From positions 1,890,001-1,922,000 of the forward strand of contig NZ_RSDW01000001.1 of the NCBI RefSeq assembly GCF_003945235.1: a stretch of 32,000 nt of DNA, in the 5' to 3' direction. This document shows positions 696-18,186 of this stretch, piece after piece. The translations under genes and the position numbers were made by a program. The notes under the pieces are model-generated. The model searched no databases. It saw only the letters and a list, made by a program, of their open reading frames with translations, and was not told the DNA's origin. This stretch comes from Edaphobacter aggregans (GTDB lineage: Bacteria; Acidobacteriota; Terriglobia; Terriglobales; Acidobacteriaceae). Every line of letters begins with the position of its first letter. Within the stretch, counting starts at the first letter, position 1.

Positions 696-914
696 ATGCG
701 CTCAGATCTTATTTTTGGAGCCCTCACGCACGTCACAAACCGGTATGAGCTGTGCCAGTTGGCGTCGAAGGCAACCCGTAAGCTGCACAAGCCGAATACT
801 CGTTTGCAGGACACGACGAATGAAGTTCTCGATCGCTTCAAGGACACCGTTCCGATGGGTGAATCTGAAGCAGTTGTAGAGAAGGTACATGTTCAGGAAC
901 GCCGCGCAGCTTAA
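696..914 (+). CDS. Small 72-aa protein with an RNA polymerase omega (RpoZ)-like core motif
   Basis: ATG at 696 is preceded by AAGGAG (685-690) with a 5-nt spacer. The stop TAA (912-914) lies in the loop of an intrinsic terminator. The segment NRYELCQLASKATRKLHKP follows the omega pattern N-R-[FY]-x-L-[VC]-x-x-A-x-K-x-[AT]-R-x-L. The functional call is by motif only. Confidence 0.6.
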   Translation: MRSDLIFGALTHVTNRYELCQLASKATRKLHKPNTRLQDTTNEVLDRFKDTVPMGESEAVVEKVHVQERRAA

Positions 915-927
915 CGCGCGGCTTTTT
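901..927 (+). terminator. Rho-independent terminator closing the small omega-like ORF
   Basis: GCCGCGC (901-907) pairs perfectly with GCGCGGC (916-922). The loop is 8 nt (agcttaac) and is followed by TTTTT (923-927). Confidence 0.75.
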
Positions 928-1075
928 CCTCTTACGCACAACCCACTATCTGCAGTACAATCCATCCTCAGTACAAATTCTCCTTACAATTGGCCTTCCG
1001 CACGACCCCCTCGTCAAGCAGATCCCGCCTCAGTTCCAAACAATCCCTCCTAAATTACAAAATTCCAGGTAAAAC
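928..1075 (+). promoter_or_regulatory. C-rich/G-poor rho leader, a candidate rut-like autoregulatory region; it must also hold the rho promoter if the terminator at 901-927 is efficient
   Basis: Hand count gives 55 C against 15 G in 148 nt, although the surrounding + strand is G-rich. TACAA motifs recur at 956, 972, 985 and 1056. CAGTACAA is repeated at 953-960 and 969-976. I could not identify a convincing -35/-10 pair. Confidence 0.35.
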
Positions 1076-2326: not shown

Positions 2327-2368
2327 GAGCTCTCGAGATCATCGGGTCCGGGTGGTACTGGTCCGATG

Positions 2369-2409
2369 AAAAGAGGCGCGGTTCATATGGGCTGCGCCTC
2401 TTTTGTTTG
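2369..2409. terminator. Bidirectional intrinsic terminator between convergent rho and the SDR gene
   Basis: AAAAGAGGCGC (2369-2379) pairs with GCGCCTCTTTT (2394-2404). The + strand trailer is TTTTGTTT, and the A-run on the left provides a U-tract for the - strand. Confidence 0.8.
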
Positions 2410-2418
2410 CAGGGGAGA

Positions 2419-3168
2419 TTAGCGGAAGCCGCCGGAGGCATTGACGATTTCGCCGGTGAGCCAGTAAGAGTCGTTCGAGGCGAAGAAAGCGACAATGGGT
2501 GCAATGTCACTGGGTTGGCCGATACGACCGAGGGGCGTCTCGGCTTCGCGCTTTTTCTGCATATCTCCGCCTATCATTCCCACTGTATGGGTACCTTCGG
2601 TTTCGGTGAGGCCAGGGTTGACGGAGTTGACGCGAATCTTTCTAGGTGCGAGCTCCTTGGCCAGTACGCCGGTAATGGCGTCGACTGCGGCTTTGGTGGC
2701 CGTGTAAATGGCGCTGCCGGGAGGGGTGTAGGACGATACGGTCGAGCCGATATTGATGATGCTTCCGCCTTGCTCGCCGAAGAGTTTTGCTGCTTCGCGG
2801 CTGACGAGAAGAAGGCCAAGAACGTTGGTATTGAAGTGGCGGTGGAACTCCTCTTCAGTGACTTGATCGAGCGTGCCGAATTTAAAGACACCTGCGTTGT
2901 TGACGAGGATGTCGAGCTGGCCGAAGGCCTTCTTCGTCTCAGCGAAGAGACGCTCGATGTCAGTGGCCTTAGCTACATCCGCCTGAACGGCTATCGCTTT
3001 ACCTCCGCTGGAGGTGATTTGAGTTACGGTGTCTTCCGCACCTTTGCTACTGGACGCGTAATTGATGACGACAGCAGCTCCTTCTTTGGCGAGTTCGCGC
3101 GCAATGGCTGCTCCGATTCCCTTTGAGGCTCCTGTGACGACAGCGACTTTACCTGTTAGCTTGCCCAA
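2419..3168 (-). CDS. Short-chain dehydrogenase/reductase (FabG-like SDR oxidoreductase)
   Basis: 249 aa with a TTG start preceded by GGAAGGA. It carries the cofactor motif TGASKGIG, an NNAG motif and the catalytic Y-x(3)-K (YTATK). Confidence 0.9.
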   Translation of the reverse strand: MGKLTGKVAVVTGASKGIGAAIARELAKEGAAVVINYASSSKGAEDTVTQITSSGGKAIAVQADVAKATDIERLFAETKKAFGQLDILVNNAGVFKFGTLDQVTEEEFHRHFNTNVLGLLLVSREAAKLFGEQGGSIINIGSTVSSYTPPGSAIYTATKAAVDAITGVLAKELAPRKIRVNSVNPGLTETEGTHTVGMIGGDMQKKREAETPLGRIGQPSDIAPIVAFFASNDSYWLTGEIVNASGGFR

Positions 3169-3271
3169 TTTCCTTCCCTTCTGGATTTCCCAGCTTCACG
3201 TTTTAATAAGCTTCTAATGGATGAGGGAAGAAACAAAAGGATTCGTGTAGCAAGTTTTGTCTCTGGCGATC

Positions 3272-3856
<585 letters not shown>

Positions 3857-3873
3857 AATTCGTCCTTTGATGG

Positions 3874-4545
3874 CTAGTAGCCGTTGGCCATGAGGTATTG
3901 CTCGGTCAGGGTAAAGCTTTCGGCGGTTTGTTTTTGCTGGCGTTCGGCATATTTGCTGAGGACGTCTACTTCGATGTTTAAGGGGTCGCCGGAGGTAAGG
4001 GTGCGGAGGCTGGTGGAGGCGTAGGTGTGGGGGATGATGGCGATGGTGACCTCGTTGTCGTAGATGGCGGCTACGGTGAGGCTGATGCCTTCGATGGTGA
4101 TGGAGCCTTTTTCGACGACGTAGGGGGTGAGGGTGGGTGGGATGGTGAGGCGGAGACGGTAGTCGGTGGTGTCGGGCTGGTCGGGGTGGAGGGGGTCGAG
4201 GGCGAGGAGGGTAGCAGTGCCGTCGACGTGGCCCTGGACTACGTGGCCGCCGAGGGGGGAGCCGGCGGGGGTGGGGAGTTCGAGGTTGACGATGGATTCG
4301 GGGCGAAGGTGCGAGAGGGTGGTGCGGGCGATGGTCTCGGCGGCGAGGTCGGCGGAGAAGCGTGGGGGGAAGGCATTGGGCTCGATGTCGAGAGCGGTGA
4401 GGCAGACTCCGCTGACGGCTACGCTATCGCCGGTGTGGAGGCGGCTGACGAGTTCCGGCGAAGCGGCGATGGTGATGCGCGTTGTGCCCGCGGTAGGGGT
4501 GAGGCAGAGGAGGGTTCCTGTGGTTTCGATAAGGCCAGTGAACAT
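3874..4545 (-). CDS. ribE: Riboflavin synthase (alpha chain)
   Basis: 223 aa. The hallmark N terminus MFTGLIE is present. The two-barrel repeat is visible ([12 protein letters not shown] in the first half, [13 protein letters not shown] in the second). Confidence 0.93.
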
Positions 4546-4666
4546 GGGTATAGGGTACTCATGGATCGGGAGAGGAACAACTCACCAAGCTCATGAACGC
4601 TTCTTGTGAGGTAGTTTCATGGAACTTCTCGATTTTGTTGGTGAGGGATTGTCTTTCTCGGCTGCT

Positions 4667-6292
4667 TTACCAGCGACATATCACGCCATCGTTACCGGCG
4701 CCGGTGCCGAGATTACAACTCCAGGGAAGTGGCGGCGTACGCGCGATGCCGAAGACGGCGCCATCCTTGATGGGGATGCTGCAGAGGTTGCTGGCATCGG
4801 CGTAGTCATAGATGCTGGGCAGCGCTTTGCAGGCTGGGATGCTGGCCGCGGGTGTAATCGGAACGGTCGTGCCGCCGGGCGCGAAGATAATCCGGTAGAG
4901 CGGCGCGTCGTCTGAGTAGACCTGGGGATCGTTGGGCCATGTATACGCGTGGGGAAAGACCATGTGAACCGTATCGTCGCCAATACATAGGGCATTCGGA
5001 TTGCCGGGATCAACGTGCTTGCATGTACCAAATGGAGGCTGCGTCGACTTATCCGGGATGCCTGTATATGGATTTATATAGTCGTAGGGAAAGGTGCAGA
5101 TATCGGAGTCACAATGCCCTTGCGGATTATCGACGAATCCGCGGAGCACGCAGCGATGATCGGTTTCGCTGCCAGGATTGATCCAGCACGCGCCATTTAC
5201 GGGGCAGTCGGAGTCTTTCGTACACATTGTCTTGTTGGTTGGGTAGTACTGGCTCGGATCACCGGCGCAGAAGGTCTTCCAGTTGTAGCAGGTGGGATCG
5301 GATATGTTGCAGTCCATCGCTGGTTCCGTGGGGAATTTGTACTTACCGCAGTTTGAGAAACAGGCTACGGTACCGTCCCCCCCTTGCGGCTTTCCGTTAT
5401 CGTCGAGGATGACGAAGCCGTAGTTTTTGCTGTAGGCGCCGCGCGTGGTGAGGTCGGCGCGCGTAAGCCGGAACGCTTCCGGACACCGGTTGTCCGCTCG
5501 CAGATCGTCTCCGTGAACTGAGAGAGGAGAGTTCGGAGGGGTAACCCGGGAGTTGGTTAGCCAGAAGATGTTCTGGGGGGCTCCGGGGTCTTCAGCGCTA
5601 CCGCCTACCTCCTGGATATCTACGGTGAGGCTCACTCCATTGACTGCGCTGATATCGAAGTTGTCTTTATAGTAGGTGGCTCCGCTGGTCGATGTTGAAG
5701 TTTGATAAAAGGTCCACTCGGTGATGGTGGTGGCTCCCGGGGGTCCGAGCTTTGCCTTGCTGACGTCGTATACGCCGCCAGCTCCGCCGGTTTCGCACTG
5801 TGCCTTGTCCGCAGCGATGTCGTAACGGCAGCCGGTTCGTGCCCAGATATTCGGAGCGATGCTTCCCTTCGCTATGGTGGAGGCCCATGCTGGCGGTATA
5901 TCGATGGTCAGGACGTTGCCGTGGTTGGGTGCACCGACCGGTCCCATGACCCAGGTGCCTTCTCGTGGGAAGACCGAAGTGAGTGGCTGATTTGCAGAGG
6001 CGGCCGCATTCGCTGCGCCTAGCAATGTCTGGTCGGAACAGTTGACCAATTGCACGACTCTGACAGCGGGCGGTGTTGGCGCAGGTGCTGGCAGATTTTC
6101 CAGGCATGGATCTGGAGCCGGATTCCTGCGGCGGCGAGATTCCTGAGCGCGACCATCGACGACCCACAGCAACTGGAAGGCTAAGCTGAGCACGAAAGAG
6201 ATACGCGCAACTGCGAAGAAAAACTCACTCGACCAAGTTCGTTTACCGCGTTGAACTGACTGCGTTGGGAGTGGGGGGGCTTTGGTTGTCAT
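4667..6292 (-). CDS. Secreted, Cys-rich, expanded thaumatin-like (PR-5 family) protein
   Basis: 541 aa with an N-terminal hydrophobic signal/anchor (FFFAVARISFVLSLAFQLLWVV). Motifs occur in thaumatin/osmotin order: VQLVNCS, NIWARTGC, CETGGAGG, TTITEWTF, DNFDISAVNGVSLTVDI, ACFSNCGKYKF and the C-terminal FPHAYTWPNDPQ...YRIIFAP (compare CPDAYSYPQDDPTSTFTCP..NYRVIFCP). GGGAG lies 6 nt upstream of the ATG. Confidence 0.8.
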   Translation of the reverse strand: MTTKAPPLPTQSVQRGKRTWSSEFFFAVARISFVLSLAFQLLWVVDGRAQESRRRRNPAPDPCLENLPAPAPTPPAVRVVQLVNCSDQTLLGAANAAASANQPLTSVFPREGTWVMGPVGAPNHGNVLTIDIPPAWASTIAKGSIAPNIWARTGCRYDIAADKAQCETGGAGGVYDVSKAKLGPPGATTITEWTFYQTSTSTSGATYYKDNFDISAVNGVSLTVDIQEVGGSAEDPGAPQNIFWLTNSRVTPPNSPLSVHGDDLRADNRCPEAFRLTRADLTTRGAYSKNYGFVILDDNGKPQGGDGTVACFSNCGKYKFPTEPAMDCNISDPTCYNWKTFCAGDPSQYYPTNKTMCTKDSDCPVNGACWINPGSETDHRCVLRGFVDNPQGHCDSDICTFPYDYINPYTGIPDKSTQPPFGTCKHVDPGNPNALCIGDDTVHMVFPHAYTWPNDPQVYSDDAPLYRIIFAPGGTTVPITPAASIPACKALPSIYDYADASNLCSIPIKDGAVFGIARTPPLPWSCNLGTGAGNDGVICRW

Positions 6293-6395
6293 GGGTAGCT
6301 CCCGTATACGGAGATTCCGTTTTAGGGCCCAACAACTTCTGAATAGATATACCTTCGGGGAATGTCTGCACGGTATTCCCGAGGTCTATTCGCTG

Positions 6396-7601
6396 TCAAC
6401 ATGGCGGCTCGCCGTCAACCTGCGGCCATGGGTTGTGGAGGTAGCCGGTGATGCAGGCGTCAGGTTTTTCGGGTGAGCCGAAGGTGGTGCGGGTGACTCG
6501 GCGTAGGGATTGTGCGAAGAGGTAGGGGGAGGGGATGCCTTGGGCGAAGGGGATGGCTTGATCGCCTAGTTCGGTGTCGGAGTAGAAGAGAACGGCCTTG
6601 TCGACGAGGTTCTGGCGGAGGAAGGCTCCGTTGAGGTGGGAGCCGCACTCGAGCAGGAGGCTGAGGATGTTGCGCTCGGCTAGCGTGGCGAGGACGGCGG
6701 GGAGGCTGAGGCGTCCGGCGTAGTCCGGGATGTGGTCAACTTCGACGCCGAGGGAGCCAAGGGAGGCGGCTTTTGCAGTTGGGGCGAGTTCGCCGCAGAG
6801 GATGAGGAGATCGTTGTTTGCAGAGCGGATGAGCTGCGAGGTGAGGGGGATGCGTAGGTGGGTGTCGAGGATGACGCGAAGGAGGGGGCGGCGGCGGGGA
6901 AGCATGTTGGGGCCGAAGACACCGCTGCGGTCGGTGAGCTGGGGGTCGTCTGCGAGGACGGTGCCGATGCCAGTGAGGATGGCGTCGGAGGCGTGGCGTA
7001 GGAGTTGGACCTCGTAGCGGGCGGCGGGGCCGGTGAGCCAGTAGGGCTGATTGGGGTAGCGGCTGGCTGGGGGTGGGGCTAGTTTGCCGTCGACGGAGAG
7101 GGCGGCTTTGAGGGTGACGAAGGGGCTGCGGGTACGGATGAAGTGGGCGAAGGCTTCGTTGAGGTCGCGGGCTTGCTGCTGGAGGGTGCCCAGGGTGACT
7201 TCGATGTTGGCCGCGCGGAGCTTGGCGATTCCCTGGCCGCTTACGAGCGGGTTGGGGTCGGTGGTGGCGATGACGCAGCGGGCGATGTCGGCGGCGATGA
7301 GGGCGTCGGCGCAGGGACCGGTGCGGCCATGGTGGCTGCAGGGCTCGAGGGTGACGTAGGCGGTCGCTCCCTTTGTCGAGTGGTGGTGTTCGGCGGCTTG
7401 CTTGAGGGCTACGATCTCGGCGTGGTCGTAGTGGTCATAGAAGTGTGCGCCTTCGCCGATGATCTTGGCGTTTCCCCCGTCTGGCGGCGATTGTGTGATG
7501 ACGCAGCCTACCTGAGGATTGGGCGAGGCGAGGGCTACAGCCTCGGCGGCGAGCTTGAGTGCTCGCTGCATGAAGACTTCGTCTTGTGAGGCGGTAGCCA
7601 T
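6396..7601 (-). CDS. ribD: Bifunctional riboflavin biosynthesis protein RibD (pyrimidine deaminase / uracil reductase)
   Basis: 401 aa. The deaminase zinc motifs HAEIVAL and PCSHHGRTGPC are present, followed by a C-terminal reductase domain. Confidence 0.93.
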   Translation of the reverse strand: MATASQDEVFMQRALKLAAEAVALASPNPQVGCVITQSPPDGGNAKIIGEGAHFYDHYDHAEIVALKQAAEHHHSTKGATAYVTLEPCSHHGRTGPCADALIAADIARCVIATTDPNPLVSGQGIAKLRAANIEVTLGTLQQQARDLNEAFAHFIRTRSPFVTLKAALSVDGKLAPPPASRYPNQPYWLTGPAARYEVQLLRHASDAILTGIGTVLADDPQLTDRSGVFGPNMLPRRRPLLRVILDTHLRIPLTSQLIRSANNDLLILCGELAPTAKAASLGSLGVEVDHIPDYAGRLSLPAVLATLAERNILSLLLECGSHLNGAFLRQNLVDKAVLFYSDTELGDQAIPFAQGIPSPYLFAQSLRRVTRTTFGSPEKPDACITGYLHNPWPQVDGEPPC

Positions 7602-7690
7602 GTTATTTCCGAGGGTTTACCACTGCAATACTTGTTCTTTGTAAAGTATCTGCATTCCTTATGTTAGGTTTACATGCAAAACATGGTTCT

Positions 7691-7730
7691 AAAAGAGGAG
7701 GCCCCGGTTTTGGTCCCGGGGCTTCTTTTG
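7691..7730. terminator. Bidirectional terminator-type hairpin about 90 nt upstream of the ribD start
   Basis: A 10-bp stem pairs 7698-7707 (GAGGCCCCGG) with 7716-7725 (CCGGGGCTTC) and includes one G-U pair. The loop is 8 nt. The hairpin is flanked by AAAA (7691-7694) and TTTT (7726-7729). Confidence 0.6.
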
Positions 7731-7864
7731 CTCTCTGTATTTAGTATAGCGGTTTGAGTGGAATGACTATGCACGCGAATCTCCTTGATTGGTGAGGGGA
7801 TTTGCGTTTTGGGGTTGACAGATTTTTCGACGAGATTGGTCGAGGCGCGATGTTCAACAACAGT

Positions 7865-7903
7865 GCTCATCTTAGCGACAGTGAGGCAGTCGCTAAGATG
7901 AGC
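7865..7903 (-). terminator. Perfect 15-bp stem-loop 28 nt downstream of the stop of gene 7931-8860
   Basis: GCTCATCTTAGCGAC (7865-7879) pairs with GTCGCTAAGATGAGC (7889-7903) around a 9-nt loop. The trailing - strand sequence ACUGUUGUUG is only moderately U-rich, so terminator function is uncertain. Confidence 0.4.
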
Positions 7904-7930
7904 ACCGGACTAGAAACGGTTATTCCGAAA

Positions 7931-8860
7931 TCAGTGTGCGGTTACCATCAAGTAAGCGGTTCCTGATGCGGTAGGACATGGGTTAGGGTTTGACGTTGTT
8001 ACGGTGTAGTGAATGCTATTGCTCGAGCCCGATGGGATCGCAGATGTTTGCACTGTGCACACTGAACTGGTGTTGTTGATGGCCGCTTCTTTGCAAACCT
8101 GTACGGGGTTATTGCTGGCGTCAAGAAAGCCGCTGACCGAAAATCCTCTCTGACCAGACGTCCACTGAATTTTTTGTCCAACAACTGCGCTCATGGTGAT
8201 GGGCGTAGTTGTTGAATCCGTCGACGACCTGACGATAGGAGCGTTGGGGGTGTTTGTGTCGCACGATATGCCAGCCAACACTGCCGCCTGGTGTGTACCT
8301 GCGGCTGGAGGTGCAGCCCCAAGAGGTGCAGCAGCAGGAGTAGCAGCAGCAGGAGCAGCTGATGGAGAAGCAGCTGGCAGAGTGGGAAGACCTTCGCCTG
8401 GGTCCTTGCCGAAGGCAGTCTTTATGCTCCCAAAGGTTGTCTGTACAGCGTAGACGTCGTTGTTCGGTTGGGGATCATTTCCGGGATCACAAGCGGCCGG
8501 TTGACCACTGCTGGGATCTTTGCACAAATATACGTACTGCCCTTTATCAACCGCTACCGTACAGATTGATTTGTCGGCGTTATTCGGCATGCAGGGAGAG
8601 TCTGTTAGATAAGCGATGTTTATTCTTTGCAATGGGCCATCAGGGGTGCTGCGACCTACCCAATTGACGACATCATTCTTGCGTGGCATTACTTTAATCT
8701 GATCACTTTGCTGGTCTAGTTCAAGGGTGATGTAGTTGGGGCGAAAATGCGCGTCGAATAATAGTCCCAAGGCGAAGCCAAGGATGAAAACGCCAAGACA
8801 GGATGAGGCGATTAGGCCCCAGCGTGGTTTAGATTTCGTTTGGACAGTCTCGTCAGACAT
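7931..8860 (-). CDS. Membrane-anchored hypothetical protein with two Cys-containing extracytoplasmic domains joined by an Ala/Pro linker
   Basis: 309 aa with one N-terminal TM segment (WGLIASSCLGVFILGFALGLLF) and an AAPAAATPAAAPLGAAPPAAG linker. Both domains carry W...C...S-[IV]-C-T-V...Y...C. The gene starts 43 nt after the kinase stop on the same strand. Confidence 0.7.
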   Translation of the reverse strand: MSDETVQTKSKPRWGLIASSCLGVFILGFALGLLFDAHFRPNYITLELDQQSDQIKVMPRKNDVVNWVGRSTPDGPLQRINIAYLTDSPCMPNNADKSICTVAVDKGQYVYLCKDPSSGQPAACDPGNDPQPNNDVYAVQTTFGSIKTAFGKDPGEGLPTLPAASPSAAPAAATPAAAPLGAAPPAAGTHQAAVLAGISCDTNTPNAPIVRSSTDSTTTPITMSAVVGQKIQWTSGQRGFSVSGFLDASNNPVQVCKEAAINNTSSVCTVQTSAIPSGSSNSIHYTVTTSNPNPCPTASGTAYLMVTAH

Positions 8861-8903
8861 TTTGGTAGTCCTTTCAAATTTGGCGATAGAAGTGTGGAAC
8901 AGG

Positions 8904-11729
8904 CTAAGAAGTTGCAGGGCCGGATGGGGATTGTTTTTTTGTTACCTGGGAGATATACCTTGGGTCCTTACGAATGTCTTTGAGGTCGACAGCCAGGTTC
9001 ACTTCGGCGGGAGACAGGCCTCGATCCATACAGGTGAGAAGTAGTTTGGTTGCATCCTCTTTTTTGCCGAGCACAGCGAGCGTCTGCACTTTCATGAATT
9101 GGGATTCGACATCGATTGCGCCCCGGCTTTCCGCGTTCGCCATGTCTGTTGCGGCTCCCGCGGCGTCGCCTATTTTGGCGTGATAGAACGCGAGAGTCAT
9201 CCAGCCTGGACCGCTGTGAGGATTGTTCTTGAGTACCTGCGCCATCGAATTTGCGGCCTTTGTGTAGTTCTCCCGTACCTGAGCCGGCTGGCCCAGCATC
9301 GTGTAACAGTCCCCGATATTTCGCCAAATAAGGTGATTTTTAGGGCGAAGCTGTGCGGCTTGGTTGTAGTTGTTGAGAGCGCCTTTGTAGTCGCCGTCGC
9401 CGAAGGCAATGTCGCCGAGAACAAGACGAGCGGTGTAGTTGTTACTGCGCCGGATGCTTTCTTCCGCAGCCTCCTTGGCTTCGTTACGCTTGCCCATCGC
9501 AATGTACATATTGCCGAGGTTGGCCATTGGCAGCGCCACATCGGGGGCGGACATGGCTGCTGCATCGAAGGCATCGGCTGCCTGTTGATACTTTGCCTGC
9601 CGGAAGAGCATCAAGCCTAGATCGTTATTGGCGAACCAGTAGTTGGGGCGCTCTTTGAGAATCTCCCGATAGGTTTGTTCCGCCTCGGGCAAGTGGTTCA
9701 GGTCGCGCAATGCGTGCGCCCTGTAGAGCATGATCTCGGGATTGCCGGGATCGGCTTTGAGAGCCTTGACGAAGTAATCCATCGCCTGGTTGGTGTCGTC
9801 AGAGTAGAGATAGACGAGTCCGCGGCTGAAGAGTCCTTTGGCTGAATCGCCGGCCTTTTCTGCGTTCTGACGTGCGAGAGTAAGGAGAGCCGAATCATGC
9901 ACGATGTAGTATTTGCGGATATACGCGATGGCCAGTTTGGCGTAGCCCAGGCGGAAGTTCGGATCCTTTTCGAGGCATTCGCTGTATTTGAGAATCGCCG
10001 CGTCGACGCCGGTATTGTTGGGCTGATTGGCAAATTGCTCGGCCTGACTAAACGAGGAAAAAACATCCGCGGAGACGTTCCGTAGCTCATCTGCGTCTTT
10101 GGGCGATTTTTCCTGTTCAGACAGATCAAGGAGTCTGGCTGCTGCTGCCGATCCTTTTTCGGGGAGGGTACTCAACTGCGCGCGGCTGGATGAGACGTGC
10201 TGTCTGCGAAGGAGGTGTTGAGTTGCGGCATCCAACACCTGAAGGAGGAGTGTGACTTTGGTTGCAGTGGCTTGAAGTGAGGCTGCCAGCACGAGGTTGG
10301 CACCCAGGGCGTTTACGGATTCGGCCGGCGTAGTCGGCAAACCGGTGGGACTCGGGAGATCGTTGGAGGTGATGATCAGGAGGTTTTTGACGTAGGCCTC
10401 GGCGCGGGCGAGGCGGCTACGGATAGAGCCGAGGACAGTAGAGACGATGGGCTCCGATTCGCTGCTGGCGGTTGGCCACGCCATGAGGGCAACGAAGCGC
10501 TTCTCCGGGAGCGGATGTATCCACAGGTCGATCTTTGGCCACTCGAACCAGATGCCTCCAGCGGCGGCGAGGGACGCACCGGTCCCCATCTCAATCATGT
10601 GTCGGCGCGTAATGGAGCGTTTTGTCGTGACCTTCGGAGAGGAGGAATCGAGGGCGGTCAGAGCATCCGGAATCGTCTGATAGCGAGACGAAATATCAGG
10701 TTCGAGGCAGCCTCGAATAAGCTGTTGCCACTCTGGCGGGAGTGTCTCGAATGCACTGTTCTGTGCAGGTTGCAGTCCCTTCCCTACGTTGATGGGCGGC
10801 AATGTGCCAACTAACATTTCGTAGGCAACGACGCCGAAGGCATAGACGTCAGTCGTCTTCGATGGGGGCTCTCCGCGGAAAAGCTCCGGAGCCATATAGG
10901 CCGGTGTTCCAGCCACGCCAAAGGAGGTCTGGGTATAGTCTTCGGCTAGATTGGCATGGGCCAGGCCGAAGTCCATGACGCAGACACGGACCTGTTCGCC
11001 GGAGCCGTCCAACATAATGTTGGAGGCTTTGATGTCGCGGTGAAGGATTCCGGCATCGTGGATGGCAGCCAAGGCTGTCGCCACCTGCTTGATGATCGAA
11101 GTGGCTTCGGGCAGGTCGATTCGTCCCTGTCTGCTTATTCTGGAGGCCAGGGTTTCGCCGGACAGGAGCTTCATCGTCAGGAAGTTGAGCTGGCCTTTTC
11201 GCAACTGGACGTGAAAGATGTCGTAGATAGGACAAAGATTCGGATGGATGACTTCGCGGGCGAGCAGGACCTCCCGCTCGAAGCGCCTTTGCATAGAAGG
11301 CTTGCCCGCGACTTGTGGGAGCACCGTCTTCAAAGCGAGACGAACACCTTGCAGGTGGAGGTCCTCGACTTCGTAGACCTCCCCCATTCCACCTTTTGCA
11401 ATAAAGCGAATGACAAGGAATCGGTCTCCCAGGATATCGCCTGGGGAGATTCGAATTGCTGGTGCGGATGCTATGGCTTCATCAATCTCTTCGAAGCCCT
11501 TTGTTTCGTCACTTTGAAGAGGAGTAGGCCTCAATTTTTCCTGGAGACCAGGCGGTGGATGTTGAAGAAAGCTTCCAGCTTGCTCATCCCTGATAAGGAG
11601 GGAGTCGACCGAACGCCTGAGTTCCAGATTGTCGCCGCATGCTCGATCGAGATAGGCACGCCGCTCTGCAGGATCCATTGCGAGGGCGGCATCGAACAAC
11701 TGCTCGACTAACTCTTGCTGATCAGCCAT
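8904..11729 (-). CDS. Ser/Thr protein kinase with a transmembrane segment and a C-terminal TPR-repeat domain
   Basis: 941 aa. Hanks-type kinase motifs are present: GKGGMGEVY, LALK, HRDIKASNIML, DFG and APE. One central hydrophobic segment (GTGASLAAAGGIWF) is followed by multiple TPR-like repeats (for example AxxxYxxALxxxPxxxxA patterns). Confidence 0.92.
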   Translation of the reverse strand: MADQQELVEQLFDAALAMDPAERRAYLDRACGDNLELRRSVDSLLIRDEQAGSFLQHPPPGLQEKLRPTPLQSDETKGFEEIDEAIASAPAIRISPGDILGDRFLVIRFIAKGGMGEVYEVEDLHLQGVRLALKTVLPQVAGKPSMQRRFEREVLLAREVIHPNLCPIYDIFHVQLRKGQLNFLTMKLLSGETLASRISRQGRIDLPEATSIIKQVATALAAIHDAGILHRDIKASNIMLDGSGEQVRVCVMDFGLAHANLAEDYTQTSFGVAGTPAYMAPELFRGEPPSKTTDVYAFGVVAYEMLVGTLPPINVGKGLQPAQNSAFETLPPEWQQLIRGCLEPDISSRYQTIPDALTALDSSSPKVTTKRSITRRHMIEMGTGASLAAAGGIWFEWPKIDLWIHPLPEKRFVALMAWPTASSESEPIVSTVLGSIRSRLARAEAYVKNLLIITSNDLPSPTGLPTTPAESVNALGANLVLAASLQATATKVTLLLQVLDAATQHLLRRQHVSSSRAQLSTLPEKGSAAAARLLDLSEQEKSPKDADELRNVSADVFSSFSQAEQFANQPNNTGVDAAILKYSECLEKDPNFRLGYAKLAIAYIRKYYIVHDSALLTLARQNAEKAGDSAKGLFSRGLVYLYSDDTNQAMDYFVKALKADPGNPEIMLYRAHALRDLNHLPEAEQTYREILKERPNYWFANNDLGLMLFRQAKYQQAADAFDAAAMSAPDVALPMANLGNMYIAMGKRNEAKEAAEESIRRSNNYTARLVLGDIAFGDGDYKGALNNYNQAAQLRPKNHLIWRNIGDCYTMLGQPAQVRENYTKAANSMAQVLKNNPHSGPGWMTLAFYHAKIGDAAGAATDMANAESRGAIDVESQFMKVQTLAVLGKKEDATKLLLTCMDRGLSPAEVNLAVDLKDIRKDPRYISQVTKKQSPSGPATS

Positions 11730-11995
11730 AATCCCGCTCCAACGAGGCTCCCGGGTAATACGGAGGATCTGTGCCGAGGATAGACTGTGTGGCTAACAGA
11801 CCCTGGTCGTACGCGGCCCGTTTCGCTTAGTTCATCACACCGAACGATAGATAGAATCCGGAGTTTTGGTCAGGACAACTTCGGAAAGCCTCTGTTTCGG
11901 TGAATTTAGCTAACATCCATCCGCCACTGCTAAGAGTGATATAGAGCTTATACGAGTCGAGGCATCGTATCAGGAAATTTTATTTTTGGGGAAGA

Positions 11996-12991
11996 TTATT
12001 CGAGGAGAGAGTCGATAAAGGTTGTGCTGTCAAAGGGGATAAGGTCTTCGATCTTTTCGCCTACCCCGGCGTAGATGACGGGGAGTTTGAGTTCGGTGGC
12101 GATGGCGAGGACAATGCCTCCCTTGGCGGTGCCGTCGAGTTTGGTGAGGACGATGCCGGTGACGCGGGCGGCTTCGGTGAAGAGGCGGGCCTGCTGGAGG
12201 CCGTTTTGGCCAGTGGTAGCGTCCATGACGAGGAAGGTTTGATGCGGGGCGCCCGGGACGAGCTTTTCGGCGGTGCGGCGCATCTTGTCGAGCTCTTTCA
12301 TGAGGTCGGACTTGGTGTGGAGGCGGCCAGCGGTGTCGGCGATGAGGATGTCGGTGTTGCGAGCCTTGGCGGCGATGCAGGCGTCGTAGAGTGCGGCTGA
12401 AGGGTCTCCGCCCTGCTTGGTTTTGATGATGGGGACGTCGGAGCGCTGGGCCCAGACTTCGAGCTGCTCGATGGCGGCGGCACGGAAGGTGTCGGCGGCG
12501 CAGAGGAGGACGGTCTTGTTTTGAGAGCGGAAGAGAGCGGCTAGCTTACCGGTGGTGGTGGTCTTGCCGGTGCCGTTGACGCCTACCATCAGGATGACTT
12601 CGGGCGGAGTGGAGGGGTGTTGAATGGGATGGGCTACGCCGTCGAGGATCTGCTTGAGCTCCTGCTTGAGAAGCTGCTTGAGTTCGGCTCCGCTTTGGAT
12701 GCCGGTACGGAGGGCGCGCTGGCGGAGGTTCTCCATGATGATGGCGGTGGTGGCGCTGCCGATATCGGCGGCGAGGAGGAGCGGCTCCAGGCTGGTGAGG
12801 GAGGCTTCGTCGACCTCGCGGGTGAGCGCGATGACGGAGCTGATCGACTCGGAGAAGGTCTCGCGGGTGCGGGTGACCGCCTGCTTCATGCGGTCGAAGA
12901 GGCCGAGCTTCGGCGTGGACTCCGGGGTGAGAGATTCGGACTCGGCTGGTTCGGGTTTGTCGCGTTTTCCGAAGAGAGAAGAAAAGACCAT
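11996..12991 (-). CDS. ftsY: Signal recognition particle receptor FtsY
   Basis: 331 aa. SRP-GTPase motifs are present: [10 protein letters not shown] (G1), DTAGRL (G3) and [10 protein letters not shown] (G4). The N-terminal region is acidic. Confidence 0.95.
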
Positions 12992-13050
12992 GCTGAGTCT
13001 AGTTTATCGGATTGGGCGGAATAGCATTCGCGGAGCCTTCAATCTGCGGG

Positions 13051-13224
13051 TCAATAGCCTGCGCGAGCGATGAGAAGCAGGTAGATGATGAGGATGGCGA
13101 CCAGAAATAAGGCTCCAATGACGACATGGAGAGGTTTGAAGCCAAGGATGCGTTTTTCACGAGGCAGATCGGGCGGCGGGATGTGGTCTTCGTCGTGATG
13201 GTGTCCGTGATTGGGTTCGGGCAT
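13051..13224 (-). CDS. Possible small (57 aa) His-rich membrane protein
   Basis: From the ATG at 13224 the product is MPEPNHGHHHDEDHIPPPDLPREKRILGFKPLHVVIGALFLVAILIIYLLLIARAGY, with one clear C-terminal TM helix. It lies 59 nt upstream of ftsY on the same strand. No good SD is present. The longer TTG-initiated version (13278) looks non-coding. Confidence 0.4.
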   Translation of the reverse strand: MPEPNHGHHHDEDHIPPPDLPREKRILGFKPLHVVIGALFLVAILIIYLLLIARAGY

Positions 13225-13391
13225 GGATACAAGGTAGTCCTGAATACACGATATGGGCAGGAAAAAGTGATTTTGCAATCTAGCAGTTGTCAGGCGATGC
13301 GGTGTATCTTGGCGCGCATGACAAAGGTGGAGCTAAACTGTCAACGGCCAAGACCTCGCCCATAACATCTTCATCGACAAGGAATCGGAAC

Positions 13392-14504
13392 ATGCGTCTC
13401 GCCTCAATCACCCTTCTGCTTTCGTTCGCCCTCGCCGCCCCCGCCCAAACTATGTCCTCCGGTCAGCCCTCGGCCCCTGCCCAAAAGTGGCCCACCAAAG
13501 ACAACGTCTACGTCATCAAGAATTTCAAGTTCGGCACCGGCGAATCCCTCCCCGAGCTCACCCTCCACTACCTCACGCTCGGCTCCCCGCACCGCAACGC
13601 AGCCGGACACGTCGATAACGCCATCCTTCTCCTCCACGGCACCGGCGGCGACCGCCACACCCTGATGAACCCCGTCTTCTCCAACGTTCTCTTCGGTCCC
13701 GGCCAGCCCTTCGACATCACCAAATACTTCCTCATCCTCCCCGACGACATCGGCCAGGGCGACTCCTCCAAGCCCTCCGACGGCCTCCACATGAAGTTCC
13801 CCCAGTACGACTACGACGACATGGTCCGCTCGCAATACATCATGCTCACCGAGGGCATGCACGTCGACCACCTCCGTCTCATTCTCGGCACCTCCATGGG
13901 CTGCATGCAATCCTGGGTCTGGGGCGAAACCTACCCCACCTTCATGGACGGCCTCGCCCCCTTCGCCTGCTACCCAGTCGAACTCGCCGGGCGTAACCGC
14001 ATGACCCGCTACATCGCCATCACGAGCATCGAGAACGACCCCGCCTGGAAGGGTGGCGACTACACCACCCAGCCCGCTGAAGGCCTCCGCGGAGCCGCAG
14101 CCATGCTCCTCGTCATGGGCTCCGCCCCCCTCCAGATGCAGAAGAATTACCCCACCCGCGCTCAGGCTGAAAAGTACGTCGACGACTACATGACCCGCGC
14201 CATCGCCCACACCGACGCTAACAACCTCATCTACTACGTCAACGCCTCGCGCAACTACAACCCCGAGCCCAAACTCTCCACCATCGTCGCCCCCGCCCTC
14301 TGGATCAACTCAGCTGACGACTTCATCAACCCACCCGAGCTAGGCGAAAAGATCATCAACGACCGCGTCCTCCCCAAGATGCCCAAGACAAAATTCATCC
14401 TCATCCCCATCTCCGACGCCACCCGAGGCCACGGCACCCACACGGTCGCCACCATCTGGAAGCAATACCTCATCGACTTCATGGCCGAAACCGAACCCAA
14501 ATAA
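13392..14504 (+). CDS. Secreted alpha/beta-fold hydrolase of the MetX (homoserine O-acetyltransferase)-like family
   Basis: Start chosen at ATG 13392 (AAGGA 9 nt upstream), which gives the signal peptide MRLASITLLLSFALAAPAQT. It has a nucleophile elbow GTSMG within LILGTSMGCMQSWVWGETYP, a LLLHGTGGD motif and an FLILPDDIGQGDSSKPS motif. Confidence 0.85.
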   Translation: MRLASITLLLSFALAAPAQTMSSGQPSAPAQKWPTKDNVYVIKNFKFGTGESLPELTLHYLTLGSPHRNAAGHVDNAILLLHGTGGDRHTLMNPVFSNVLFGPGQPFDITKYFLILPDDIGQGDSSKPSDGLHMKFPQYDYDDMVRSQYIMLTEGMHVDHLRLILGTSMGCMQSWVWGETYPTFMDGLAPFACYPVELAGRNRMTRYIAITSIENDPAWKGGDYTTQPAEGLRGAAAMLLVMGSAPLQMQKNYPTRAQAEKYVDDYMTRAIAHTDANNLIYYVNASRNYNPEPKLSTIVAPALWINSADDFINPPELGEKIINDRVLPKMPKTKFILIPISDATRGHGTHTVATIWKQYLIDFMAETEPK

Positions 14505-14521
14505 GCCACTCATTCCCCGAC

Positions 14522-14564
14522 AAAAAAAGAAGCGACGGCATCGCGACCGTCGCTCTTTTCTTTT
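14522..14564. terminator. Bidirectional intrinsic terminator between convergent genes
   Basis: An 8-bp stem pairs AGCGACGG (14531-14538) with CCGTCGCT (14547-14554) around an 8-nt loop. An A-run (14522-14528) lies upstream and TTTTCTTTT (14556-14564) downstream. Confidence 0.8.
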
Positions 14565-14574
14565 CGGTACGGAC

Positions 14575-16008
14575 TCAACTTCCAGGAGCAATCGCCAGAT
14601 ATTGCTCAAGCTTCCCATCCGGCTCCTCAAACACCAGGATGCGCACCGACCTCCCCGGAAACTCAGCCGTAAACACCCGGAACACCATCCCGCCACGCTT
14701 TGACGTCGAAACCTGCTTGAAGCTGGTCGGCGTACCCAGCGGCTTCAGGCTCGAGGCAAAATCATCCAGCGCCTCCTGCGTAAAATAATCACTCGCTAGC
14801 TGCGTCAACTGCGACCGGTCGATCTTCCCCTCCTGCAGGCCAGTGAAGATCGCCAATGCCCGCGCCTCCGCAGCTTTTGTTGCAGGGGAGTCATCGACAG
14901 CAGTGGCAGAAGCACTAGCAAGCACCAGAGGCACAATCTGGTGAACCAGGGTACCCGCCGCACTGGAAGCGTCCTCGTTCGTCAGCACCGTTACAGCGAT
15001 TTTGTCGTTTGGAAGAACCATATTCGCTGAGACAAAACCCGACACTTCACCATCATGGAACACAGTGCGATGTCCATCGTGATCTCCAACGAACACACCC
15101 AACCCATACTTGCTGCCTGTGCCGTCCTTCAGCTTCACCTCGGTGAACATCTCGTCGTACGAAGCCGGAGCCAGCAGCGACCGATTCATCAGACTGATGT
15201 TCCACAACGCAAGATCGCTCGCCGGCATCGCCAACTCACCCGCGGCAAACATCCAGCCCCTCCCCTCCTGCGGTGCTGGACGCAGCGGCCCCAGCGCATG
15301 CTGGTAGTACCCTGTAGGATCGTTCGCCGGCAGCCTGCTCGCATCCGAATTAAAAACTCCCGTCATCTTCAACGGTTTGAAGATTCGCTCCTGCAATTGC
15401 TCAATCAGCGGCTTGCCTCCAACGATCTCCCCAATCCGTCCTGCAATCACATAGTTCGTATTCGAGTACTGCCATTGCGTGCCCGGCTCAAAGTCCAGCG
15501 GCTTCTTTCCCCACACATCCAGAATCTGTTGCGGCGTAGTGGGCTTCATCATCGAGGTCATCACATAGTCTTCAGGCCAGAAGTCCTGATACCCCGACGT
15601 CATCGACAACACCTGCCGCACCGTCACCTCATTGGCCCGCGTCAACCCCGGCAGAAACTTCCCCACCGGATCATCCAGCGTCACCTTGCCTTCCTGCACG
15701 AGAAACAAAATCAGCGCCGCCGTGAACTGCTTGCTGATCGACCCAATCGAATACTGCATCGACGGATCAGCCGCTATCGGAGGCTCCAGCCGCGCCATCC
15801 CATAGGCCTTCACATACGCAATCTTCCCATCCTTCACCACCGCGACGGACGCGCTGGGCACACCCGATTTCTCGAGCACCTTCTTCGCAGCAGCATCAAT
15901 CTGGCCCGCCGTAGCCGTCGACAAAGAGTTCTGAGCCACGCAAGGCAACACTGCCATCGCACACGCCAACCCCAAAACACCCGCGGTCCTTACAGTCAAA
16001 TTTGTCAT
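14575..16008 (-). CDS. Secreted serine hydrolase of the beta-lactamase / penicillin-binding (class C-like) family
   Basis: The S-x-x-K motif (SISK in SIGSISKQFTA) and the Y-x-N motif (YSN) are present. Start chosen at ATG 16008 because it gives a canonical signal peptide (MTNLTVRTAGVLGLACAMAVLPCVAQ). The ORF remains open up to 16068. Confidence 0.85.
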   Translation of the reverse strand: MTNLTVRTAGVLGLACAMAVLPCVAQNSLSTATAGQIDAAAKKVLEKSGVPSASVAVVKDGKIAYVKAYGMARLEPPIAADPSMQYSIGSISKQFTAALILFLVQEGKVTLDDPVGKFLPGLTRANEVTVRQVLSMTSGYQDFWPEDYVMTSMMKPTTPQQILDVWGKKPLDFEPGTQWQYSNTNYVIAGRIGEIVGGKPLIEQLQERIFKPLKMTGVFNSDASRLPANDPTGYYQHALGPLRPAPQEGRGWMFAAGELAMPASDLALWNISLMNRSLLAPASYDEMFTEVKLKDGTGSKYGLGVFVGDHDGHRTVFHDGEVSGFVSANMVLPNDKIAVTVLTNEDASSAAGTLVHQIVPLVLASASATAVDDSPATKAAEARALAIFTGLQEGKIDRSQLTQLASDYFTQEALDDFASSLKPLGTPTSFKQVSTSKRGGMVFRVFTAEFPGRSVRILVFEEPDGKLEQYLAIAPGS

Positions 16009-16145
16009 GCCCGAAAGATTACCAACCCCGCCCCCAAAATGTATCGACATTTCTTTTACCCACTCCACGACTGAATTCCCGTGACGCGCGCACCTCCGTC
16101 AGCGTCCAACCATGTAACACGCGCAGTCGTTGATCGGAGGACCTG

Positions 16146-17114
16146 TTGCTCACACGCCGCCGTTTTCTTCACACAGGCCTTCGCCTCGCCGCGACCTCCA
16201 CATTCGTCCCACATATCTTCGAAGCAGAAGCCTTCCAACCCCCATGGCGTCAACCCGTAGCCTCTTCGCAAACCATCACAGTTGGCAACTCGTCGATCCA
16301 ACTCGACCTGGGCAATGGCAACCTCGATCTCTCACACGACGCCATCACCCTCTGGGTCCGCCGAGCCGTCGAAGCCATCGCCAAATACTACGGCCACTTC
16401 CCCATCTCAGGCGCACGAGTCCTCGTCCTTCCCTCCTCCGGCGGCGGAGTCCACAACGGCACTACCTGGGGCAACGTTGGAGGCTCACCAGCCTTCACCC
16501 GCATCCGCGTCGGCGAACACACAACCTCCGATCAACTCCGCGAAGACTGGATGATGACCCACGAGCTCATCCACACCACCTTCCCCTCGCTCCCCGAAGA
16601 AAACCATTGGCTCGAAGAAGGCACCGCCGTCTACGTCGAACCCATCGCCCGCGTACAAGCGGGTCAGCTCGATCAACAACTCGTCTGGGCCGACATGATC
16701 CACAACATGCCTCAAGGCAATCCGCGTGACGGCGACCGCGGCCTCGACCGCACTCCCACCTGGGCCCGCACCTACTGGGGCGGCGCCGGCTTCTGCCTCC
16801 TCGCCGACGTCGAGCTTCGCAAGCAAACCCGCAATCGCCTCGGCCTGCAACAAGCCCTCCGCGCCATCGCCTCCGCGGGCGGCACCATCGACCACGACTG
16901 GCCCATCGACCGCACCCTGGCTGTCGCCGACAAAGCCACCAGCACCGACGTCCTCACCAAACTCTACAGCCGCATGAGCACCACGCCAGTACCCATCGAC
17001 TTCGATTCCCTCTGGACACAACTCGGCGTCACCCCATCCGGCAACACCGTCATCTTCAACTCCAAAGCGCCACTAGCCGAAATCCGCCAGGCAATCTTCA
17101 CGCCGCTTGCCTGA
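16146..17114 (+). CDS. Tat-signal-bearing putative zinc metallopeptidase (HExxH, gluzincin-like)
   Basis: The TTG start is the first start codon after an in-frame stop and is preceded by GGAGG (16136-16140). The twin-arginine motif is TRRRFLH. HELIH is followed by WLEEG, resembling the HExxH...WLNEG arrangement of gluzincins. Confidence 0.7.
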   Translation: MLTRRRFLHTGLRLAATSTFVPHIFEAEAFQPPWRQPVASSQTITVGNSSIQLDLGNGNLDLSHDAITLWVRRAVEAIAKYYGHFPISGARVLVLPSSGGGVHNGTTWGNVGGSPAFTRIRVGEHTTSDQLREDWMMTHELIHTTFPSLPEENHWLEEGTAVYVEPIARVQAGQLDQQLVWADMIHNMPQGNPRDGDRGLDRTPTWARTYWGGAGFCLLADVELRKQTRNRLGLQQALRAIASAGGTIDHDWPIDRTLAVADKATSTDVLTKLYSRMSTTPVPIDFDSLWTQLGVTPSGNTVIFNSKAPLAEIRQAIFTPLA

Positions 17115-17176
17115 ACGAAGCAAGTGCTCGCGGACGAACTCGACCTCGTCCATCCGCGAGCTTCCCTCTCCATTCC

Positions 17177-17659
17177 TCAGTTGGTCTCAAGCAGCCGTTG
17201 CAGCTTGTCGAGCCCATTCGACCAGCCGTACGAATGTCCCTGATGCGACTCAGCCGTAGCGAATCCTTCATGCACCAGCTTCATCTCCGTTCCGCCTTCA
17301 ACATCCCGCAGCATAACGGTCACCAGCGACTCCTCGTCCGGAGACCAGGTTGCCTTCCACGTAAACGCCACCAGGTCATATGGCTCGACACGAACATATC
17401 TCCCCGTGACGTGACCCGAGCGCTCCACTTCTCCCGGCTTCACAACGCCCCGCGTCGAGATGCTGTACTCCCCATCCACTCGGGTATCCGTATCCGCCTC
17501 AGTGATGGATATCGGCCCCGGCCCAAACCACTGCCGAATCATCTCCGGTCGGGTCCATGCATCGAATACTCTCTGCCGACTCGCCTTGATCACCCGTGTC
17601 ATCTCGACCTTCAACTTCTCTGCCTTCGCCGTCTGATTCTCAACTACGCTTGTCGCCAT
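17177..17659 (-). CDS. SRPBCC-superfamily protein, AHSA1 (activator of Hsp90 ATPase homolog 1-like) family
   Basis: 160 aa. The motif RVFDAWTRPEMIRQWFGPG is typical of the family. AAGGAGAAG lies upstream of the ATG. Confidence 0.85.
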   Translation of the reverse strand: MATSVVENQTAKAEKLKVEMTRVIKASRQRVFDAWTRPEMIRQWFGPGPISITEADTDTRVDGEYSISTRGVVKPGEVERSGHVTGRYVRVEPYDLVAFTWKATWSPDEESLVTVMLRDVEGGTEMKLVHEGFATAESHQGHSYGWSNGLDKLQRLLETN

Positions 17660-17697
17660 CGTCTTCTCCTTTTTTGCTCTCGTCTTTAGTTCACAAC

Positions 17698-18186
17698 TTA
17701 AACCGCAAAAAACGCCTGCAACTTATCCAGCGCACTCTCCCAGCCAGAGGCATGCTGATCGCGCGACGCCTCCGTGAGGAAGCGCTCATGCGTTAGCTTC
17801 AGCTCGGTTCCACCTTCCACGTCCTTTAGCTCGATCGTTACCAGCGATTCCTCCTCCACAATCGTCGGATTCCTCCACGTAAACGCCAGAACGTCGTAAG
17901 GATCCACCCTCGTATAACGGCCGGTCACCAGCGTCTGCCTCTTCTCATCCTGCCGCTCACCGTCTACGCACTCGCCATTCAGCAACAGCCGCCATTCGCC
18001 GCCCACACGCGCATCCATGCCGGCATCAGCAACCGTCATCGTCCCCGGAGTGAACCACAGCCGTATCGTCTCCGGACGAGTCCATGCGTCAAACACCCTC
18101 CGTCGACTCGCCCGAATCACTCGCACCATCTCCAGCTTTATGCCCGCATCAACCCGCTCATCGACCCCGACCAAACTAGTTGCCAT
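17698..18186 (-). CDS. SRPBCC-superfamily protein, AHSA1-like (paralog of 17177-17659)
   Basis: 162 aa with the motif RVFDAWTRPETIRLWFTPG. AAGGAGAGG lies upstream. The start overlaps the arsR stop by 11 nt. Confidence 0.85.
   Translation of the reverse strand: MATSLVGVDERVDAGIKLEMVRVIRASRRRVFDAWTRPETIRLWFTPGTMTVADAGMDARVGGEWRLLLNGECVDGERQDEKRQTLVTGRYTRVDPYDVLAFTWRNPTIVEEESLVTIELKDVEGGTELKLTHERFLTEASRDQHASGWESALDKLQAFFAV

Follow-up and report, generated by a model that had tools for sequence, protein, structure and literature searches.

The question raised by this locus is why one strand of the Edaphobacter aggregans chromosome changes abruptly from G-rich to C-rich between two divergent genes, a small open reading frame (ORF) beside ftsY on one side and a gene for a secreted hydrolase on the other. 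The locus was analyzed within a stretch of 32,000 nucleotides (contig NZ_RSDW01000001.1, positions 1,890,001–1,922,000), which is called the window below and whose own coordinates are used throughout. The original prediction, made from the letters of the sequence, interpreted the switch as a probable replication terminus or, alternatively, as an inversion breakpoint. Our results indicate that the skew flip is very probably one end of a recent inversion of about 34 kb that took place within a single replichore in the E. aggregans lineage.

The flip was evident at every scale at which it was measured. In 1-kb intervals, the GC skew of the + strand was +0.004 to +0.39 up to 13 kb and −0.15 to −0.52 from 13.5 kb to the end of the window. 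In 500-bp intervals, 25 of the 26 values to the left of the flip were positive, with a mean skew of +0.18, and all 37 values to the right were negative, with a mean of −0.29. In 200-bp intervals, the skew passed from +0.30 at 13150–13349 to −0.28 at 13300–13499, with the sign change between ~13250 and 13400 and a flip width of ~150 bp, and the cumulative GC skew within the window peaked at 13332. These values reproduce the abrupt switch that had been placed at ~13.2–13.4 kb, and the gap between the divergent genes is indeed 13225–13391, with the small ORF next to ftsY ending at 13224.

The flip was strongest at third codon positions. Read in the sense of the + strand, the third-codon-position (GC3) skew was +0.25 to +0.83 in all genes to the left (rho on the + strand and ten genes on the − strand) and −0.34 to −0.81 in 12 of the 13 ORFs tested to the right, which lie on both strands; the lone exception, ORF 26397–26945 (−0.03), is probably a wrong frame. 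AT skew switched along with GC skew, G and T being enriched jointly. The original prediction had already maintained that the bias ignores the coding strand. Because the third-position skew kept its sign whichever strand a gene lay on, the asymmetry is mutational and replication-type, and an explanation by transcription or codon usage was rejected. The oddity that most genes to the left lie on the strand that the skew marks as lagging was also confirmed (10 of 12 complete or partial genes on the − strand). The argument that a change from G excess to C excess has the polarity of a terminus, whichever strand is read, is sound as logic; however, one end of an inversion within a replichore gives the same polarity.

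The arrangement in relatives separates these possibilities. The relative loci and metagenome contigs that were fetched are numbered L001–L096 and include the ftsY loci of 80 Acidobacteriaceae genomes. The gene order to the left of the flip, rho-ribE-ribD-ftsY, was common to the ftsY loci of these 80 genomes, and the right-hand genes of the window were absent from all of them; a tblastx comparison of the right block with the ftsY loci returned low-complexity noise only. In L087 and L088, the closest lineage with long flanks (FtsY 96% identical), the genes upstream of ftsY were the small ORF, a divergent PNPOx-family gene, panE, gpsA, plsY, and cinA, and the skew was ~−0.3 in the ftsY orientation over at least 10 kb on each side, with no flip. 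L002 (88% identical) was collinear with this order, and its skew was also uniform. The counterpart of the right-hand side was found in L089 and L090, which were 88–92% identical to the window from 13389 on and had the same skew. There, the hydrolase gene was preceded by a GSHPx and an M61 peptidase gene in L089 and by other genes in L090, and the skew upstream of it was uniform in both. The flanks of the flip are therefore uniformly skewed in relatives on the left (L087, L088, L002) and on the right (L089, L090). This does not bear out a terminus at the flip, and the synteny instead reveals the second option of the original prediction, a lineage-specific breakpoint with local skew flips.

A synteny that stops at the flip in comparison with 80 relatives, none of which has the right-hand genes beside ftsY, is also what inserted, horizontally acquired DNA or a genomic island of opposite skew might produce. 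Nevertheless, both sides proved to be native Edaphobacter DNA with collinear homologues at 88–92% identity and equal skew magnitude; the searches turned up no integrase, transposase, tRNA, or direct repeats; and the two new adjacencies described below are reciprocal, a pattern that an inversion should give and an insertion should not. We consider an acquired island to be very improbable. Only two tRNAs were detected when the window and 60 loci were scanned, too few for tRNA orientation to serve as a marker of replication direction.

The joint in the window could be placed almost to the base. When the gap was aligned with L081 and L086, which were located through an identical Rho protein and in which the PNPOx-family gene (Pfam PNPOx_N) is intact, the conserved sequence ...GCGCGCATGAC[A/G]AAGG[TG/CA]GAGCTA was recognized as the extreme 5' end of that gene. 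The homology of the window to L081 and L086 ends after ...GAGCTA, at 13335, and its homology to L089 and L090 starts at TAAACTGTC, at 13334. With the joint site marked by a slash, L081 reads ...GAGCTA/TTTGGG at the PNPOx 5' end and L089 and L090 read ...GGAAATGTA/AACTGTCC upstream of the hydrolase gene; the window reads ...GAGCTAAACTGTC... across the joint. The local alignment to L089 and L090 identifies the final 57 bp ahead of the hydrolase ATG in the window as native upstream sequence, beginning with TAAACTGTC. The two parental sequences overlap only in the dinucleotide TA at 13334–13335, and this seamless joint lies 2–3 bp from the cumulative skew maximum. The PNPOx start called in relatives (ATG GCT) lies 9 bp past the break, and farther upstream there is an in-frame ATG at the equivalent of window position 13318; whichever start codon applies, the body of the PNPOx gene is gone from the joint.

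The intergenic stretch upstream of the hydrolase gene in L089 (4572–5058, after the M61 gene) and L090 (3786–4451, after a gene for 306 amino acids) is ~640 bp of non-coding DNA with good conservation from one relative to the other, within which lie a GC-rich hairpin (GCCTCCGGC..CCGGAGGC and then a run of T) and direct repeats of GAATGAATAnTTTACAA. With the exception of its last 57 bp, this stretch was found at neither E. aggregans joint.

These alignments also bear on the possibility that the flip is a replication terminus at which forks converge and dimers are resolved by a degenerate dif/XerCD site at 13311–13338. The step is abrupt and has the G-to-C polarity of a terminus, and the 28-mer of the window that most resembles E. 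coli dif (GGTGCGCATAATGTATATTATGTTAAAT) falls on it. The proposed site was thus correctly picked out as the best E. coli-like candidate, with 15 of the 22 arm positions matched, but not as a dif site. About 1.6 matches as good as this are expected by chance in a two-strand search of 64 kb (an estimate), and the 28-mer lacks the TTATG core. Its "XerC arm," "spacer," and most of its "XerD arm" (through 13335) derive from the 5' region of PNPOx, the hydrolase upstream region contributing the last three bases and the shared TA only. When the 28-mer was searched for in all loci, it was not conserved and was absent at the skew flips elsewhere. Judged by these comparisons, it is a chance resemblance and a chimera of the rearrangement and not a recombination site.

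Scans with other dif sequences agreed with the earlier statement that no canonical dif is present at the locus. The dif sequences of E. coli, B. subtilis, Caulobacter, and Streptomyces gave no credible match. In addition, Kono et al. predicted Firmicutes-like dif sequences for Acidobacteria, ATGTCCGATAACAGATATTATGTTAACT and ACTTCCGATAACGAATATTATGTCAACT (PMC3025954, supplement 2), and the two credible predictions, those for Ellin345 and Ellin6076, were used as queries (Acidobacteria dif pattern, A[CT][GT]TCCGATAAC[AG][GA]ATATTATGT[TC]AACT). In the window, nothing matched these sequences at ≥ 19 of 28 positions, so no counterpart of the ACTTCCGATAACGAATATTATGTCAACT type is present there; the best match (18/28, at 7850) is unrelated to the flip. 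Nothing reached 20/28 in 86 fetched loci, several of which have flips, and a scan for a degenerate dif core within ±1.5 kb of 11 flips gave nothing credible. Neither a dif consensus nor conservation at the step in relatives, two defining features of a dif-bearing terminus, was found here; moreover, the flanks are uniformly skewed and have different neighbors in relatives, and a flip of opposite direction occurs at the reciprocal joint ~34 kb away. Motifs for DnaA, XerCD, and FtsK were detected in none of the fetched loci. There is little likelihood that this is the terminus, and the true terminus would be at another place on the 6.15-Mb chromosome.

A chimeric join, in which contigs of opposite replichores are wrongly assembled, would likewise put a skew step and a synteny break at one place, and assembly errors are known to be visible in skew plots (SkewDB, PMC8941118). 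However, three independent metagenome assemblies (L091–L093; ENA ERZ27279679, JGI 3300005533, and JGI 3300027826) were 97.1–97.5% identical to the window, collinear across the joint, and identical in junction sequence, which excludes a misassembly, and two of the three samples also hold the reciprocal joint. An artefact is accordingly scarcely conceivable. The inversion is present in the isolate and in environmental populations that are ~97.5% identical to it, and absent from lineages that are 81–91% identical in DNA.

An inversion predicts that at its other end gpsA should abut the M61 peptidase gene. In E. aggregans, GpsA is RSL16054.1 and the M61 peptidase, which falls in the same 90% cluster as that of L089, is RSL16055.1, and these adjacent numbers agree with the prediction. 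The joint itself was found in L095 and L096, E. aggregans-type metagenome contigs from the same two JGI samples as the contigs with the window-type joint. Read in the M61 orientation, these contigs carry genes for citrate synthase, a protein of 325 amino acids, DUF1254/1214, DinB, an aminotransferase, two amino-acid permeases, GSHPx, and M61, and past M61 follow gpsA, plsY, and cinA, all on the − strand. The skew of L095 flips from C to G, with the cumulative minimum at 12192. At 12194, 2 bp past this minimum, begin the 54 bp that are left of the PNPOx 3' end; this remnant is 90.7% identical to L087 9319–9267 and encodes RWIRYSDF* where the intact gene has KWIRYSDFDQ. At this joint, panE and most of PNPOx are absent. 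No parent sequence was found for the 282 bp between the M61 stop and the PNPOx remnant (L095 11912–12193), and the M61 peptidase is 636 amino acids long at the L095 joint vs. 689 in L089.

The protein numbers also account for the whole segment. M61 through citrate synthase account for nine genes (L095) and DAO through ChlI for seven (L081/L094); together with a gene for 72 amino acids and rho, they fill RSL16055–16072 exactly, which places SDR at RSL16073, as observed. The corresponding lengths, ~12.9, 8.2, and 13.3 kb, give a block of ~34.4 kb. In the orientation of the window, the layout is therefore a C-rich flank of at least 9.7 kb, a G-rich block of 34 kb, and a C-rich flank of at least 18.7 kb.

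All the features of an inversion within a replichore that were tested were found here, and the phenomenon is an ordinary one, an inversion-induced skew reversal of a known kind. The adjacencies are reciprocal: the ancestral orders small ORF-PNPOx-panE-gpsA and M61-hydrolase have been replaced by PNPOx 5' end-hydrolase (in the window and L091–L093) and by M61-PNPOx remnant-gpsA (in L095, L096, and RSL16054/16055). The skew steps at the two breakpoints are opposite in direction and lie at 13332, against a break at 13334–13335, and at 12192 in L095, against a remnant that begins at 12194. In non-inverted relatives, the skew is uniform over the block (L087 and L094, which cover 40 kb of one contig, and L089), which indicates that the inversion lies within one replichore; inversions that span the origin or terminus create no skew steps at their breakpoints.

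From the relatives, we infer that the ancestral order was plsY-gpsA-panE-PNPOx-small ORF-ftsY-kinase-...-rho-...-citrate synthase-...-GSHPx-M61 peptidase-hydrolase, wholly on one replichore and with uniform skew. Breaks at the extreme 5' end of PNPOx and 57 bp upstream of the hydrolase gene were rejoined in the inverted order. The 2-bp TA microhomology, which is all that the parental sequences share at the window joint, points to illegitimate recombination there, and the second joint would have undergone additional deletion, replacement, or decay. The PNPOx gene was destroyed, leaving a stub at the window joint and the decayed 54-bp 3' remnant at the other, and panE was lost. Since strand asymmetry is a mutational record, mainly at synonymous sites, the inverted block would have brought its G-rich strand into C-rich surroundings, resulting in paired steps, G-to-C at the window joint and C-to-G at the other.

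No repeats shared between the two joints were found, the best local alignment being 12 bp; neither end of the block showed an IS element, and no transposase, integrase, or recombinase was seen among the annotated neighbors of the joints. These results bear on the suggestion that the 34-kb block is a programmed, reversible switch operated by an invertase. An independent rearrangement in the L001/L082 lineage, which ends within ~400 bp of the joint, could suggest a preferred site. On the other hand, inverted repeats common to the joints and a nearby recombinase gene, which such a switch calls for, are lacking; a gene was destroyed at one joint and deletions occurred at the other; and all four assemblies of the lineage have a single orientation. 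The chance that the block is a programmed switch is thus slight, and its features, like those of an acquired island, were not found.

The inversion appears to be young. The skew of the block was compared with that of non-inverted orthologous DNA, and the paired values were nearly the same (+0.184 vs. +0.183, +0.359 vs. +0.357, and +0.174 vs. +0.194); on this compositional evidence, the block would have yet to begin re-equilibrating. Polarized lineage-specific substitutions gave equal apparent erosion in all lineages, that of the window being no more extreme, and parsimony is biased under such skewed composition.

Several points weigh against the proposed inversion. The substitution counts of the inverted block contain no sign of skew reversal, which is compatible with a very recent event without being positive evidence of one. 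The second joint is not a clean reciprocal product, so that either further deletions or an event of greater complexity has to be assumed. The left joint of the isolate is placed by way of metagenome contigs that are ~97% identical and of protein numbering, and the AAperm622–AAperm627 link in the non-inverted order was pieced together from L094, L089, and L095 and not from one contig.

The usual rule is that the G(+T)-rich strand is the leading strand. Applied to the flanks, this rule suggests that forks cross the region from right to left, in which case the 19 of the 27 block genes that lie on the − strand, including ftsY, ribD, and ribE, would now be co-directional with replication. The inverted orientation therefore partly explains the gene-orientation oddity for E. 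aggregans, but the oddity persists in non-inverted relatives, in which these genes lie on the C-rich strand. Around ftsY in L087 and L094, L088, and L089, ~60–65% of the called genes were on the C-rich strand, which is a local sample; in contig_141503 of ERZ26871208 (L087 and L094), the number was 22 of 34. A more radical explanation, an unusual sign of skew relative to fork direction in this clade, is not favored, because the joint enrichment of G and T is that of standard leading strands and because the ftsZ gene of L002 is on the G-rich strand. This ftsZ gene was the lone genuine match in a scan of all loci for DnaA, DnaN, XerCD, FtsK, and highly expressed genes.

Skew flips near ftsY were also seen in other loci. 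About 15 of ~90 ftsY-centered loci had a change of skew sign within 10 kb of ftsY, in both polarities and mostly 0–6 kb upstream; these include L001 (8366), L082 (19013), L005, L016, L030, L040, L042, L052, L055, L067, L071, L073, L074, and L079. In the L001/L082 lineage, plsY-gpsA is inverted directly against ftsY, with an endpoint ~400 bp from the E. aggregans joint. These flips may mark a region where breaks recur, or no more than the border of a block of conserved synteny. The proximity of the L001/L082 endpoint and the flips in ~15 of ~90 loci are compatible with the view that the region upstream of ftsY is a recurrent inversion endpoint in Edaphobacter and the Acidobacteriaceae, and that the inversion was perhaps also favored for making co-directional the 19 of 27 block genes (ftsY, ribD, ribE, a Ser/Thr kinase, and others) that had been on the C-rich and presumably lagging, head-on strand; we regard this view as doubtful.

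The features of the window that concern the inversion are listed in Table 1.

Table 1. Positions of the inverted segment, the joint, and the adjoining features in the 32,000-nucleotide window.
Feature	Position	Strand	Basis or remark
Right-hand 13.3 kb of the ~34.4-kb, 27-gene inverted segment (RSL16055–RSL16081)	1..13335		Collinear with L081/L086/L087
ftsY (signal recognition particle receptor), RSL16080.1	11996..12991	−	Pfam SRP54/SRP54_N; exact match to Edaphobacter aggregans FtsY
Small membrane-protein ORF of 57 amino acids, His-rich N-terminus	13051..13224	−	Translation; upstream of ftsY
Ancestral divergent intergenic region (small ORF/PNPOx-family gene) and extreme PNPOx 5' end	13225..13333		Alignment with L081/L086
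Chimeric 28-mer (earlier dif candidate)	13311..13338	+	Spans the joint
Inversion crossover, 2-bp microhomology TA	13334..13335		Both parental sequences share TA
Native hydrolase upstream region (ribosome-binding site, leader), ancestral orientation	13336..13391	+	Local alignment to L089, L090
Non-inverted flank, C-rich + strand, mean skew −0.29	13336..32000		88–92% identical to and collinear with L089/L090
Secreted alpha/beta-fold hydrolase, RSL16082.1	13392..14504	+	Pfam Abhydrolase_1; first gene of non-inverted flank

Within the inverted block, ftsY is the final large gene. The 57-amino-acid gene beside it, which would correspond to RSL16081, was also called in L081, L086, L087, L088, and L091–L093. 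According to Pfam, the genes to the left of the flip are rho on the + strand and, on the − strand, SDR, DJ-1, ribE, an ORF of 541 amino acids, ribD, an ORF of 309 amino acids, a Ser/Thr kinase with TPR repeats, and ftsY, in addition to the 57-amino-acid ORF. To the right are an alpha/beta hydrolase (+), a beta-lactamase family protein (−), two AHSA1 proteins (−), mnmA (+), a CarboxypepD_reg protein, a BON-domain protein, and a GH57 branching enzyme (+), among others; the ORFs scanned in this flank included no mobile-element genes. The proteins match those of E. aggregans (taxid 570835) exactly, and their GenBank identifiers are sequential along its 6,152,256-bp contig: SDR, RSL16073; DJ-1, RSL16074; ribE, RSL16075; ribD, RSL16077; FtsY, RSL16080; hydrolase, RSL16082; and the AHSA1 pair, RSL16085 and RSL16086.

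Some further observations concern individual ORFs. The 541-amino-acid ORF (4667–6292, − strand), which has no Pfam match, sits between ribE and ribD; it is missing from the sister loci L081–L086, in which ribE and ribD are adjacent, and a call of 426 amino acids is present in the 97.5%-identical L091 and L092. In an Rfam scan of the whole window, no family reached the gathering score, the FMN riboswitch included, despite the presence of ribE and ribD (3874–7601). ORF 18634–20535 (−) encodes a protein of 633 amino acids with weak Pfam matches only, of GH43-like and beta-propeller type, and contains a 291-bp tandem repeat (18653–19479; 2.8 copies, 76% identity). Numerous long antisense ORFs (up to 575 amino acids) overlie real genes, e.g., 13404–14210 (−), 21178–22905 (+), and 12617–13073 (+). 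The extreme skew and the high GC content probably gave rise to these ORFs, which would deceive a naive ORF caller.

Local reversals of GC skew caused by inversions have been described as a forensic record of rearrangements in SkewDB (PMC8941118), SkewIT (PMC7717575), and studies of gene inversion (PMC6220195). As in those cases, the block described here keeps its former asymmetry, with paired opposite steps at the breakpoints, and the flanks keep the sign of their replichore; in contrast to them, both breakpoints are near base-resolved, one by the 2-bp microhomology and the other by the pseudogene remnant. The locus shares with a dif-XerCD terminus the G-to-C polarity and the abrupt transition in an intergenic region, but it has no dif-like sequence, its position is not conserved in relatives, and an opposite step lies 34 kb off. 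Inversions that are symmetric about the origin or terminus, which appear as X-shaped alignments, and the landscapes of inversions have also been reported (PMC5850607). Like these, the present case is a large inversion that has become fixed in a single lineage within a bacterial genus; however, symmetric inversions leave the skew intact at their breakpoints, whereas this one lies within one replichore and produced two new skew steps.

Strand asymmetry was very strong across the Edaphobacter/Granulicella clade and almost lacking in related genera such as Terriglobus (L038 and L039). A typical bacterial skew is ~0.025 (PMC8941118), whereas the skew in the window was 0.2–0.5 and the GC3 skew was up to 0.83. 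The present case is clean because the skew of this clade is unusually strong. In a brief literature search, no papers that discuss the strong skew of the clade were found.

Based on these results, annotation of the locus as the terminus of E. aggregans, and of 13311–13338 as dif, should be avoided. A sharp step with the polarity of a terminus is insufficient evidence for one, since any inversion within a replichore produces the same appearance at one of its ends. Intra-replichore inversions are generally considered disfavored, and here a young, base-resolved inversion of 34 kb has been fixed in a soil acidobacterium and has re-oriented ftsY, rho, the riboflavin genes, and ~20 others with respect to replication. 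The locus could also be of use in the debate on head-on vs. co-directional gene orientation. The strong skew of the clade at synonymous sites makes inversions easier to recognize, and the strength of this skew may merit a study of its own. Finally, the skew of the block is still fully "wrong" for its new orientation, and the locus could serve as a natural time-zero for the rate at which strand asymmetry re-equilibrates.

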